A stretch of 64,000 nt of DNA from Octopus vulgaris (Eukaryota): NCBI GenBank assembly GCA_951406725.2, contig OX597818.1, positions 126,542,001-126,606,000 on the forward strand, written 5' to 3'. Shown here piece after piece: positions 9,871-50,990 of the stretch; within the stretch, counting starts at the first letter, position 1; each line of letters starts with the position of its first letter. The notes beneath the pieces were generated by a model. That model saw only the letters and a program-made list of their open reading frames with translations. It did not search any database and was not told where the DNA came from. The position numbers were made by a program, and so were the translations under genes.

Positions 9871-10665
9871 TATGGTCTAAAATTCACACCAACTCCTAAA
9901 TCCAGCACAACAGACTTTATAACAGATACTGAAGAATTTTACAGAAGACTTCGCCCACGGGAGTTCTTTCCTAACAATGGCAACGATGATCCACCGTTTT
10001 TGCAGAATAAAACAGGTTTTAAACCTCCGATAAAAAGAAACAAACACCTGGTGGAATATATAATATACCTGAAAAGGTCTGCTAACTCAAACATTCCAAC
10101 AAACCCTTTAAAACAAAATATTACAGATGAGGGGCAAAAATCATTAGAATGTCTTCAAGATTCATCTATAATCATTAAAGAAGCTGACAAAGGAGGAGCC
10201 ATTGTAATAATGGACAAGGCCCATTAGAAGGAAATGGTCTTAGAACAATTCAGTGACCAGCAATTCTACCGAAGACTAGATAGCAATGCAAATAAACGAA
10301 CTATGAGCAAAACTGGCAAATTTATCAACAAATTCAAGGATGAGTTAACTAAAAAGGAATTGAAATACCTAACCAATTTTGAAGTGGAAACAAGTAATTT
10401 TTATGGCCTTCCTGAAATCCATAAATCCGAACAGATCAGCAACAGCTTAAAAGATCTCCATACTCCATATATTAAGATTCCCTAACCAACTGATCTCAAA
10501 TTGCATCTGATTGTTGCAGGACCAGCATCCAGCACCCAAAGATTAAGCAACTTGCTGGACATAATTTGAAAAACCTTTATGTAGATTAGTTCCCAATTTC
10601 ATCAGAGATGACATGGACTTCTTAAACCCTATCCCAGAACAGGCAGATAAAGAGACAGTACTAGT
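9871..10665 (+). mobile_element. Penelope-like element RT N-terminal fragment (Neptune-like), pseudogenised
   Basis: GLKFTPTP...EFYRRLR...IIIKEADKGGAIVIMD...FYGLPEIHKS...IVAGPASSTQRLSNLLD...FIRDDMDFL, with stops and frameshifts. Confidence 0.88.
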
Positions 10666-11065
10666 AAAGGATGAGATAAATGACATTCGCTTCGTTAATT
10701 TTACGTCGAGATAAAACCTTTAGGACAAATTGGCCAACAGTTGGAATTCAACTTGGAACTGGAACAATAGAATCATTGCACTACACAATTAATTCAAATC
10801 CGTCCTTAACCTCTGATCAAACACCACCAAGGCATATAGTCGTATGATAGTGATGCTATTTCGCTCTCTTTAGTTTGGGCCGCAAGTCCAATTAGCACAC
10901 CACAGGATTTAGCATAAAATACGCACCGAGTGCAGCTTATAAGCTAGTGCTTTATAAACAAATCTGATAACATTCGTCGAAAAAATCTTCATGCAGTATC
11001 ATTAATTAAACTTTTAAGTAGCTGCTGATTTAAAAAAACTTTCCCATGTTATGCCGACTCATAAA

Positions 11066-17284: not shown

Positions 17285-18500
17285 ATGATGTCTCCGAAGA
17301 AATCGCGCAAATACTGTTGTATATGCAGCAATTACAGAGGGAAGAATGTAGACGGCAAGGTTATTTCACTTCGTAGATACCCAGCAAACGTCGCTATTCG
17401 TCGTATTTAGCTTCAGAGATCGAGACTTGTGAGGAAAGTCTTTGTTTACATTGCAAATAGCCAGATTAGCTCCCAGCATTTCGTCAATTCTAATGGACCA
17501 TTCACAGAACACCCCTTGCCATCCGTTTTTCCAAACAAAGTATTTAAAACATCGGTACGTGCATGTTCATACACGCAGTACTCGGACCTTGGAAAGTAAG
17601 ATGGTGGATTGTGAATCACAGGCAAATGCATCTGTGGTTACATAAGAAGATGTGAAAAATGATAAGTAGAAGTTTCTATTTTACTCAGGAATAACAGATT
17701 CCATGACTTTTGATTGTTTTTTTTTTAATGAAAACTGCCAGACATGGTGAATCATCAGAGCAAGAGAGACCCAGGCAGCTTCGATTAATTGATGAATTTT
17801 TTTTTCTTGTACTTATGAGATTGCGACTTGGGCTACTATTAGAGGATTTAGCATATCGCTCCTGCATTAGCACAATAACATGCGACACAATATTTTATAA
17901 GTGGATTGATTACTTAGATGTCCAGTTATCATTTCTGGTAATATGGCCATCAAGAAAAGCAGAGAATGACCATATGCCACCATCCTTTCGTGCAAAGTAT
18001 CGAACTTGTCGAGTTATAGTTGATTGTATAGAAATACGAACTGAGACTCCTTCTCCACAAAGCAAATGATGTACACTGATTATAAATCACATATGACATG
18101 GAAGGGCTTAATAGGTATCAGTCCAGCTGGTGCAGTAACTTTAGTATCGGAGTTATGGGCAGGGAGTGTCAGTGATCAAGTTGTTACACAGAAAAGCTAT
18201 TTATTAGATCTCTGCGAAAGTAGCGATTCCATAATGGCCGACAAAGGATTTCTTATCTTTGATCTCACAACACCCTGTAGAATCCAGTTGATCCTACTCC
18301 CGTTTAAAAACCAGAAAAGGCAACTATCCAAGAGGGAAGTTTGGGAATCACGGACTATTGCAAACCTTCGGGTTCATGTTGAGTGTCAGATGGAAAGAAT
18401 TAAGAACTTCAATATTTTGAAAGTAGTCATACCTTTAAGTATGTCTCACCAAGTGTCAAAAATCTGGAAATTGTGTGCTAGACTGAACAATTCACAGCCA
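17285..18500 (+). mobile_element. PIF/Harbinger-superfamily (ISL2EU-like) transposase pseudogene: THAP, HTH and DDE_Tnp_4 domains
   Basis: From ATG 17285: MMSPKKSRKYCCICSNY...RRYP...I*...SQHF...PSVFP (THAP). Then LVLMRLRLGLLLEDLAYR (HTH), VIVDCIEI, YKSHMTWKGLIGISPAG, GSVSD, IMADKGF and IANLRVHVE (DDE). Stops and frameshifts are present. Confidence 0.88.
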
Positions 18501-40174: not shown

Positions 40175-40399
40175 AGATAAAAGAACAGAAGTTGTGGCCA
40201 AATATGCAGTATGACTTAAAACGAAAAAGAAATCCAATGGAATTTTCACAGATGCAACGCTTTTGGTGACAAGGTTGGTAGATCAGAGTTGACCTGGTGC
40301 TAAACAACACTAGTAAAAACACCATGAGACACGAAATAGGACTTCTTTGCCATCGATAGCAAGTTTCAAAATTTTGAAGCGTTAGAGGGAGGACATTGG

Positions 40400-40710
40400 G
40401 TGAAGGCGACCGGATCTGTGAAGCACGGGTAATTGGATTCTTCACGACGACAATGCACTGAGCTCTCCTTGTTCATGAGTTTCTAGCCAAAAACAACGTT
40501 GCATCGCTTCCGCACTTGCCTTATTCGCACCTGCATACTTCCATCTCTTCCCTATCATGAAAATGCAGTTCAAAGGTGGCTGTTTGCACACCGTTGTCGA
40601 GATTCAGAGCGAATCGCAGAAGGTCTTCTACATGCTTACGGAAAACAACTTCCAGGCTGGATTCCAAAAGTGGCATGAACGCTGGTTCCAGTGTAATAGT
40701 GCGTAAGGTC
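40400..40710 (+). mobile_element. Mariner transposase fragment
   Basis: WILHDDNA...EFLAKNNVASLPHLPYS...MKMQFKG...FQAGFQKWHERW. Confidence 0.8.
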
Positions 40711-41062: not shown

Positions 41063-41121
<59 letters not shown>

Positions 41122-41127
<6 letters not shown>

Positions 41128-41808
41128 GAAATATTAAAATTACTAAGTCTCTCTAAAAGAGAACAGCGGCAGCGTTCCCGGAAAATAATAGTTATCGCCA
41201 TACTAATATGGCATTCTTATAAAAATAAGAATAAAGCTGTCCACTTATTAGCTCCATGAGGCCATCGCCTTAAGTTAGCTATTTGGTACACAAACTGTAT
41301 CCATATAACCTTCGAACAAGGGAGGTCAGTCGCTCCACACTACTTGACCGGTCAAGTAGTGTGGAGCGACTGACCTCCCTTGTTCGAAGGTTATATGGAT
41401 ACAGTTTGTGTATCAAATAGCTAACTTAAGGCGATGGCCTCATGGAGCTAATAAGTGGACAGCTTTATTCTTATTTTTATAAGAATGCCATATTAGTATG
41501 GCGATAACTATTATTTTCCGGGAACGCTGCCGCTGTTCTCTTTTAGAGAGACTTAGTAATTTTAATATTTCTATTATTGAAAACAAGTGGATGTATTCCA
41601 CCGAAACTAGGTAAATAAAACCATCGAACAGGGATTGTCGGAAGCGACACCTACTGGCTGGCTACGCTGCATTGAAAAGGGGCAATACCCCGAAACGCGT
41701 CTGTAGCTGCCGGTCAAGTAGTGTGGAGCGACTGACCTCCCTTGTTCGAAGGTTATATGGATACAGTTTGTGTATCAAATAGCTAACTTAAGGCGATGGC
41801 CTCATGGA
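41122..41808. mobile_element. Palindromic plus partial-tandem hammerhead-bearing non-coding element (PLE pLTR / retrozyme-like)
   Basis: 228-bp arms 41122-41349 and 41350-41577 with one mismatch and no spacer; 41348-41446 repeats directly at 41710-41808; bounded by (TA)n and (TACA)/(CA) tracts. Confidence 0.85.
41666..41707 (+). ncRNA. Minimal type I hammerhead ribozyme, U3-A8 core variant
   Basis: GCUGCA UUGAAAA GGGG-CAAUA-CCCC GAAA CGCGU C UGUAGC: stem I GCUGCA/UGUAGC, palindromic ACGCGU stem III, GUC site at 41699-41701. Confidence 0.75.
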
Positions 41809-41960
41809 TACATACATACACACAAACACACACACACACACAAACATATATACGTAAATGTCGAACGATGAAAATGAGTGTTCAGCACCTCAAGACAGAC
41901 AGCCAGACAGACAGGCAGGCAGACAGACAGACAGACAGACAGGCAGGCAGATAGACAGAC

Positions 41961-46067: not shown

Positions 46068-46113
46068 TCAGTAAGCAACATTTTCGAAACGTCTACAATA
46101 TATATACATATAC

Positions 46114-46179
<66 letters not shown>

Positions 46180-46243
46180 ATATATGTATATGTATATGTA
46201 TATGTATATATATTGTAGACGTTTCGAAAATGTTGCTTACTGA
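46068..46243. repeat. Inverted repeat enclosing a (TA)n tract
   Basis: tcagtaagcaacattttcgaaacgtctacaata and tattgtagacgtttcgaaaatgttgcttactga are exact reverse complements. Confidence 0.9.
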
Positions 46244-49933: not shown

Positions 49934-50468
49934 ATGTGGAATTGCGATGAGAACAAAAGCAGCCCCATTTTTTGTAAACTCAGTAATGGGGTATTTCGAA
50001 TTGACTATATATCAAGTTTCCCTTCAAAATATGGATACTCCTACTTCCTATATATAAGAGAGGATTGGAAATGATGTCGGAATGATTGCTTTATCATTTG
50101 GAATAAAAGCATTAATAAACTATTCAAATTGAATTCATTGCTCAGTGGTATAAATACCAAAATCCAATTCACAATGGAATACAGCAAAGAGGAATTTCCA
50201 TGTTTTGATATTTTAATAAAAGAAAAGTTAACATTCAAATTGAAAACTAAAAACCTATAGACTCGAAGCAATATTCTGCTCATGTCATTCGAAACGCTTC
50301 AAAATATGTGTGTTTGTGTGTGTGTGTGTGTGTATGTGTGTGTGTGTGCATGCGTGTGTGTGCGTGTGTGTGTGCGTATGTGTGTATGTAATTCAGCGAA
50401 AATAATTTGCTCAGATAGTGTCGAGAGACATTACCCACCTTTACTAACAAATGATTGAATAAAACGTG

Positions 50469-50520
50469 CAAGAGGAATGATGCCCAGACGCCAAGAGGAA
50501 TGATGCCCAGACGCCAAGAG
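50469..50520. repeat. 23-bp tandem duplication
   Basis: caagaggaatgatgcccagacgc occurs twice, followed by caagag. Confidence 0.9.
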
Positions 50521-50552
50521 AAGACGAAATAATACACCCGATTTTTAAAAAC

Positions 50553-50990
50553 GCTACCTTATACATCTACCTGCACCTAGAAACAATGAAGCATATAACA
50601 TCATCATTCAAACTTTACCTACGCTCAATAGGGACCCTAAAATGAATAAAATTCTTTGCACTCACAAAATTCATCAAAATAGAAAAAAAACCAATCAAAA
50701 TCAGGAAAGAGAATATTGACATATGCAAAATTATAGCCAACAACAACTGAACCAAGAGTTGCAGAATGTGGGCGACCTAATTGAGGTACAAGTTCCAACT
50801 TACTTGAAGATTCGGATTTACATTTTAGATAGGAGCAAAGATTCAAAATAAGATTGAGTTTACCTGTACATCCCAAAACTTTATCTACGTTATACTTTAT
50901 TCAGGATGCGGACACAACTATATAGACCAAACAATAATGTCTTTCAAACGAAGAACACTGCATAAAGACATGCGGGAAATCTCCCATCAA
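50553..50990 (+). mobile_element. Neptune-like PLE fragment (thumb, Zn-knuckle linker, start of GIY-YIG), decayed
   Basis: LPYTST...PRNNEAYNIIIQTLPTLNRDPKM...ECGRPN*GT...FTCTSQNFIYVILYSGCGHNYIDQT, with frameshifts. Confidence 0.7.

Follow-up and report, generated by a model that had tools for sequence, protein, structure and literature searches.

The insertion at positions 41122–41808 of the window, the 64,000-nt stretch of the Octopus vulgaris genome that was analyzed (contig OX597818.1, positions 126,542,001 to 126,606,000), is, judged from its sequence, a copy of a young, protein-free non-LTR retrozyme that carries a predicted hammerhead and is present in about a thousand copies. We consider it likely that a Penelope-like reverse transcriptase (RT)/endonuclease laid this retrozyme down, cutting both strands of a (TA)n tract and copying RNA from each cut. 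The locus itself is an ordinary by-product, and its mirror symmetry is real but incidental.

The locus begins with a (TA)n target microsatellite (41066–41121), which adjoins the 3' end of a left arm on the minus strand (41122–41351). This arm comprises unit positions 1–230, stops at the long end of the family (~230) and contains neither the hammerhead nor the promoter-like motif described below. A head-to-head joint with a 4-nt overlap at the self-complementary word CCGG (41348–41351) connects it to a right arm on the plus strand (41348–41808) made up of one full 362-bp unit and positions 1–99 of the next, where unit numbering starts at 41348. The right flank is (TACA)n/(CA)n (41809–41850; like the left flank it was read from the sequence, and a target-site duplication cannot be told). 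A preceding sequence-only reading had described spacer-less 228-bp arms with a single mismatch and a CCGG center, as well as a unit whose first 99 bp recur exactly 362 bp further on. Sequence comparison bore out each of these points: the arms lie at 41122–41349 and 41350–41577 with no spacer and a sole mismatch at 41286, and the direct repeat 41348–41446 is found again at 41710–41808 (99 bp, 100% identity, spacing 362). The substitution at 41286 is private to the left arm (carried by 1 of 100 arms), and the right half of the palindrome ends at 41577 because the left arm ends there. The 3' end of the right arm at position 99 is atypical, ~167 being expected, so that this locus departs from the two-end rule given below (ends 230/99); its junction is unique in the genome and probably reflects either a later deletion or a mis-start. 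Positions 99–103 also form an odd 3' end at one other locus (L120), and position 99 is the joint at a third (L152, see below). A CCGG-centered joint occurs at two loci genome-wide, the second being an independent one with different flanks and the canonical ends 167/229. The palindrome is thus far beyond chance, yet no fixed trait of the retrozyme family. Since both arms chanced to stop at a self-complementary word, the mirror has no spacer, and its perfection is a rare accident of where two pieces met.

In order to assess copy number and tandem arrays, the genome (2.8 Gb, 227 contigs) was screened with the unit. The best 40 of 977 candidates gave 176 matches, many of them in tandem; full-length units were 93–100% identical, nearly all of them 99% or more, and arrays of up to 9 full units were present among the candidates scored. 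The exact 30-nt ribozyme core occurs in 1,035 genome copies, compared with 0 for a reversed control. A second subfamily, 83% identical, has the same two 3' ends, and its use as a query gave 2,883 candidates, the first subfamily included. Older subfamilies with 80–87% identity (L185–L214, L105:7884–8784, L101:1200–1500) share the two ends, a block at 196–250 and a hammerhead with compensatory changes. As had been claimed, the unit has no ORF: in a tandem of it, the longest stop-free stretch is 73 codons and the longest frame from an ATG is 38. Its GC content is 41.7%, and the predicted circle folds at −126.9 kcal/mol compared with −85.3 ± 5.6 kcal/mol for shuffles (z = −7.4), none of 100 shuffles being as low. 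A tandem multicopy unit of ~150–450 bp with a predicted hammerhead in each copy, no protein, a GC content below 50% and a self-paired predicted circle are the features by which animal non-LTR retrozymes are recognized, and the earlier proposal of a young, many-copy, non-coding hammerhead unit of the retrozyme kind is therefore well founded. Our literature search returned nothing on this element; the retrozyme families in the available text of 10.64898/2026.07.22.740005 come from other animals, and the supplementary tables of that source may bear on novelty.

Within the right arm, a minimal type I hammerhead with a U3-A8 core is predicted at 41666–41707 on the plus strand, consistent with the initial claim of a type I motif with a GUC cleavage site. 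Helix I has 6 bp, helix II 4 bp, and helix III is a self-complementary 6-nt word. The GUC lies at 41699–41701 with the predicted cut after 41701, and 41710, where the repeat begins anew, is the 9th base past that cut, so that the described closeness of the cut site to the start of the repeat and the palindrome center is correct. A loose hammerhead scan of the whole window returned 41666–41707 as its sole match. In Rfam, the window had no matches at the gathering threshold, and at E ≤ 10 there were hairpin and microsatellite look-alikes only and no hammerhead; the call is therefore based on core, fold and compensatory changes. Across 175 motifs from the fetched loci, helix III occurs as three self-complementary words and the G-C pair at the start of helix II gives way to A-U, and an older relative of the unit has a fourth self-complementary word in helix III. 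Judged by eye, all three helices show compensatory changes among the subfamilies (helix III in 4 variants, helix II in at least 2). In the predicted fold, two copies of the motif pair through helix III with both cores open, and the motif is predicted to act as a dimer. A U3-A8 core has been reported in a schistosome PLE, and such motifs are thought to be dimer-acting and of low activity (PMC4209133). For a retrozyme copy to count as 'active' in the sense of 10.64898/2026.07.22.740005, two units in a row must have complete hammerheads; this is so in other copies of the family, and this locus has one hammerhead. Since it has only one, it is predicted to be unable to release a circle by itself, and the copy is probably a dead end.

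A second, weaker hammerhead had been proposed at 41577–41613, and we reject it. Its helix I fails at the first pair (A-A), it has no closing helix II pair beside the core, and GAAA is replaced by GTAA in 4 of 4 rows of the 83% subfamily, whereas the true hammerhead retains GAAA. The conserved block that had been read in this way is explained by a motif at 41581–41596 (plus strand) that overlaps it and is predicted to resemble the proximal promoter element of U1/U2 snRNA genes. Under a matrix built from 7 of 35 U1/U2 upstream sequences, picked as distinct types, 41581–41596 is the top of 724 positions, and it lies at −57 from 41640, the putative transcription start, compared with −57 to −61 in the U1/U2 genes. 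Its score of 10.2 falls in the leave-one-out range of the U1/U2 sequences (7.9–21.2), and the oldest relative of the unit scores 14.3. Of 500 shuffles, 14 reached the score of the motif and 4 put their best site in the expected slot. The motif matches the U1/U2 core at all but 2 of 6 bases, and the 7 sequences of the matrix are related. Taken together, these data are moderate evidence for a candidate snRNA-type promoter at 41581–41596.

The position of this motif bears on the idea that transcription of the element would give dsRNA of the palindrome. Since the motif lies to the right of the palindrome and faces away from it, the element's own RNA would start past the palindrome and run outward, and the left arm has no such motif; dsRNA would thus need read-through from outside, and we do not retain the element itself as its source. 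At least half of the unit's sampled words are contained in 20 of 24 listed public runs (14 studies, 8 organisms), none of which is labeled as RNA, and in four runs presumed to be RNA the unit is present as contigs. One 392-nt contig closes on the unit, to which a circle, a tandem RNA or DNA fits equally. As for a host gene, 16 open frames were tested and none scored over the cut-off for a host family; one was a transposase. Broken frames at 40200–40710 of the window resemble what we take to be the end of a mariner-type transposase, with a 74-aa piece that has no Pfam match, and an open frame at 18045–18701 matches DDE_Tnp_4 (PF13359, E = 3e-32).

In order to define how copies of the unit are inserted, a census was taken of every locus in the first 100 listed core matches, that is, of loci chosen by position (44 regions on contig 1 and 14 on contig 2, 58 regions with 60 insertions). 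Two arms lie head to head in 41 of the 60 insertions and one arm is present in 19. The 101 census 3' ends fall into two classes, 48 at unit positions 155–175 and 46 at 215–235, with 7 elsewhere, and a TA-alternating flank adjoins 83 of these 101 ends compared with 6 of 19 free 5' ends. At this locus, the short-end site corresponds to unit 164–170 (41511–41517, plus strand), a putative start of reverse transcription that is unpaired in the predicted circle, and the long-end site to unit 227–230 (41574–41577, plus strand), a putative second start. The two classes are divided between the arms. Among the two-armed census loci, 34 combine a short with a long end, 1 has two long ends and 6 have one end out of class (7 of 41 not short plus long); of the 35 loci with both ends in class, 34 thus pair an end near 167 with one near 230 (p = 1e-9). 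In the 36 best-scoring loci, 26 are two-armed and 24 of the 24 that can be scored are short plus long, the exceptions being this locus and one clipped by the alignment. Arms overlap at 30 of the 41 census joints (28 by 1–6 nt), 2 joints are blunt and 9 have extra bases; two loci are loosely joined, with 88 and 136 bp between the arms. The joints are asymmetric in 40 of 41 cases, and the sole symmetric, spacer-less one occurs at another self-complementary word. Head-to-head truncated arms with a tail on one end, set in a microsatellite or AT-rich target, are what PLE-type insertions are recognized by, and the census, with its one-sided tail and (TA)n flanks, confirms the insertion marks that had suggested a PLE enzyme at the outset.

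The census does not uphold a special link between the hammerhead cut site and the palindrome center. Truncated 5' ends within 10 nt past the predicted cut account for 7 of 101 census ends, a modest enrichment (p = 0.02) that gives weak support for cleaved templates; in the best-scoring set the figure is 10 of 62, a value raised by how those loci were selected. The main hot spot of 5' truncation is larger and lies at unit 31–40 (41378–41387 in the window), with 14 of 101 census ends. In the predicted circle, this segment pairs with positions near 280, and the hot spot may mark a stall at a long-range RNA stem.

The mechanism that we propose for the family has four steps. An snRNA-type internal promoter would start RNA near unit 293. 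Hammerheads of tandem units would then pair through helix III and cut, giving a 362-nt monomer that a host ligase could circularize. On circular or multimeric RNA of one source, the enzyme would begin one cDNA near 167 and the other near 230. Both cDNAs would halt at variable points and be joined via an overlap of 1–6 nt; at this locus, both would have halted at the self-complementary CCGG, giving the spacer-less mirror.

The sequence-only reading had instead invoked fold-back synthesis, in which a single cDNA would have started at the right end, folded over at CCGG and served as its own template over 230 nt, up to the junction with the (TA)n. Taken alone, the locus is compatible with this: the left arm lies wholly inside the right arm, both arms share a rare base at unit 109 that is present in 3 of 105 arms, the center is self-complementary, and self-priming has been proposed for the head-to-head joints of PLEs (PMC3846280). 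Moreover, the short arm lies within the long arm in 46 of 61 clean two-piece loci, this one included, and these are therefore geometrically open to fold-back. In the other 15 of the 61 (12 of 38 in the census), however, neither arm contains the other, which fold-back is unable to make and which argues for priming from both target strands. Fold-back also leaves the 167-versus-230 split between arms unexplained, and the near-universal asymmetry of the census joints stands against it as well. We conclude that fold-back is not the rule in this family, and we regard it as unlikely at this locus.

Priming from both target strands also accommodates the relationship between arms. Arms of the same locus diverge by 0.66% (76 of 11,596 bases, 53 loci) compared with 1.59% between loci, and divergence is lower within than between in 45 of 53 loci. 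One RNA source copied from both target strands fits both the containment and the divergence data, and gene conversion at a later time could have made the arms of one locus still more alike. For a purified lizard PLE protein, cleavage and extension of both strands have been demonstrated, with initiation at two internal sites of the RNA that define the tail (PMC11167929). In the same source, start sites are equal between the strands and hammerhead cleavage is not required, both of which count against our explanation. The finding that only 1 of 9 Xenopus retrozyme dimers was cleaved in vitro (10.64898/2026.07.22.740005) likewise counts against it.

Coding PLEs of this genome were compared with the unit. 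Scoring the best 150 of 6,136 GIY-YIG candidates showed that 16 share a 781-aa open frame, the product of which has a GIY-YIG domain and an RT at 28.9 bits, just below the Pfam cut-off of 29.6. Its linker reads C-x4-C-x2-C, a motif tied to Neptune-type elements and microsatellite targeting (PMC8557442). The ends of this coding PLE lie in (TA)n, at two sites separated by 40 bp, with one site per arm in the 3 of 3 loci, among 48, that have both ends visible, and its hammerhead has a U3-A8 core and a self-complementary helix III. A young coding copy (L064:268–4960) has a 479-aa upstream frame, the 781-aa RT/GIY-YIG frame and the U3-A8 hammerhead. There is no nucleotide similarity between the 781-aa PLE and the unit, and we take it, by analogy, to illustrate the mechanism and not to be the partner of the unit. 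A search for a coding donor in 50 loci (48 of them PLE) of the 6,136 candidates, at word size 7, found similarity only to a separate, older copy of the unit nearby, and a hammerhead scan of all fetched loci returned other PLE hammerheads, none with the flanks of the unit.

These comparisons make it very unlikely that the unit is an ordinary pseudo-LTR of a coding PLE, with the copies being its truncated ends. Architecture, target, tail and hammerhead type do match the coding PLEs of this genome, 24 of 57 Xenopus retrozyme families match known elements, mostly PLE ends (10.64898/2026.07.22.740005), and in the census one copy (L152) lies directly beside a PLE frame of the same orientation. A pseudo-LTR would, however, flank an ORF for RT and GIY-YIG, and the locus has no ORF and no likeness to the 48 PLE loci; arms of the family span whole head-to-tail units, up to 9, with no intervening ORF. 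The linkage check that had been called for gave the same answer: the unit is not attached to a coding PLE, PLE protein matches occurring within ~4 kb of 6 of 58 census regions only, with L152 the one that abuts. There (L152:3820–5616), a copy of the unit is joined at position 99 to a frameshifted, C-rich PLE that is cut inside the endonuclease. We rejected it as a link to the donor, a broken, frameshifted PLE lying beside a 99% identical unit. Decayed PLE protein fragments, 33–45% identical to the 781-aa protein, are present in the window at 9874–10666 and 49955–50966. A second inverted repeat at 46068–46243 (176 bp, 96.6%) is centered on a TA-rich tract and is probably two PLE stubs tail to tail, with arms that end, by eye, like the short end of the coding PLE.

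The unit is itself the target of another element. At 41640–41656 (plus strand), the locus contains an empty 17-bp LINE target, unit 293–309, the first base of which is the putative transcription start and to which LINE 3' ends are joined in other copies. A 5.35-kb L1/Tx1-like LINE occupies the same unit position in two arrays, and of the 28 exact LINE 3' ends genome-wide, 21 are fused to the unit at 293/294, at 16 loci; the site lies 62 nt upstream of the predicted hammerhead cut. Full LINE copies have a 17-bp duplication of unit 293–309 on both sides, five copies are 5'-truncated at five different points, and tandem copies are separated by bare target. The LINE loci are L125:1491–6843, L078 and L215–L229 (16 loci). 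At G000:C2:73044000–73069000 (L217, L218), five copies stand in tandem, with either the bare 17-bp target or one further unit between them. ORF2 of the LINE has APE and RT domains (Pfam) and, among solved structures, is nearest to human LINE-1 ORF2p (E = 3e-67). An APE- and RT-bearing ORF2 of the L1 group together with a specific multicopy target makes the LINE a candidate member of the Tx1 clade. A relative with 92% identity stops at base 1 of a U1 snRNA gene (L182:1777–1942 / L233), and further relatives terminate ahead of TATAC- or CATAC-like sites. The targets of Tx1 families include transposons, U2 and microsatellites (PMC4494074), and in the literature searched, including the Tx1 targets given in the available text of that source, we found no retrozyme as the target of a LINE.

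LINE copies differ from each other by 0–1.6% and their host units by 0–4.4%, and several of the LINE insertions are therefore independent; some copies may have spread as composites. At L216:6179–8138 (minus strand), a two-armed, short-plus-long insertion has a long arm that breaks 695 bp inside the LINE, with a 7-nt overlap at the joint, which suggests that a composite LINE–retrozyme RNA was copied by the PLE route. The youth of the LINE, its APE and RT and its tie to the unit at 16 loci might raise the possibility that this LINE moves the unit in a SINE-like manner. We find this scarcely credible: the LINE enters at unit 293 with a 17-bp duplication, whereas the ends of the unit lie at 167/230 in (TA)n with inverted arms, and the two have no common 3' tail.

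Finally, it is most improbable that library preparation or assembly created the palindrome by fold-back, as might be suspected from the absence of any center-bridging or right-flank piece among 32 of ~9,500 pieces listed (four DNA or unclassified runs), since there is one mismatch between the arms, the left one ends precisely at the long end of the family, the outer sequences differ, head-to-head arms are the usual form of the family and the CCGG joint recurs at a second locus, where neither the flanks nor the arm lengths are the same.

Two points are open in the literature, namely the enzyme that moves animal retrozymes and the origin of the inverted ends of PLEs with their one-sided tail. 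For the former, PLEs have been proposed from co-occurrence and sequence kinship (PMC7229834; 10.64898/2026.07.22.740005). The present family shows the marks of PLEs in dozens of near-identical, non-coding insertions, together with the end-per-arm rule and with loci beyond the reach of self-priming; from the latter two, strand-specific start sites are predicted. A LINE homing to the predicted start of the unit would extend the known targets of site-specific LINEs to a ribozyme repeat. More tentatively, and short of an even chance in our estimate, the data could be read as a parasite of three tiers: a retrozyme with its own snRNA-type promoter; a dimeric Penelope enzyme whose fixed start site differs between the two target strands; and an L1/Tx1-like LINE that inserts exactly at the transcription start, borrows the promoter and the flanking hammerheads and sometimes travels as PLE cargo. 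If this three-tier reading were true, the 362-nt RNA would be a minimal substrate for how the inverted ends and tails of Penelope elements form.

The octopus unit resembles the animal non-LTR retrozymes described in PMC7229834 and 10.64898/2026.07.22.740005 in being a tandem unit of similar length (362 bp compared with 350–390 in mussel), in its type I hammerhead with a weak, self-complementary helix III, in having no ORF and a self-paired predicted circle, in its GC content below 50% and in the presence of PLEs in the same genome. It differs from them in its U3-A8 core and in its dispersed short arrays, two head-to-head arms and two fixed ends in (TA)n; in the main text of PMC7229834, neither 'inverted' nor 'microsatellite' appears as a word. 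With endonuclease-bearing PLEs (PMC3846280, PMC8557442, PMC11167929), as far as these sources describe them, it shares 5'-truncated arms that are set head to head and meet in an overlap or palindrome, a tail that only one end carries, two internal start sites, insertion into (TA)n and a hammerhead. Unlike these elements, it has no ORF, its tail is 63 bp rather than 30–40, its end-per-arm split is near-strict (34 of 35), and a quarter of its loci lie beyond self-priming. The hammerhead is like the minimal PLE hammerhead of schistosome Cercyon (PMC4209133) in its U3-A8 core, self-complementary helix III and predicted dimer action; it departs from motifs of that type in that helices I and II, with 6 and 4 bp, are like those of canonical motifs, that the unit containing it is a non-coding tandem repeat and that it hardly varies between copies. 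The LINE, in turn, corresponds to the Tx1-clade elements described in PMC4494074 (Tx1L in Tx1D, Keno in U2, Tx1-Mar, Kibi/Koshi) in its APE and RT, an ORF1 with a zinc knuckle, the use of a single exact site within a multicopy repeat, insertion in tandem about a duplicated target and a relative at a U1 gene, and differs from them in that its target is a hammerhead retrozyme, entered at the predicted transcription start.
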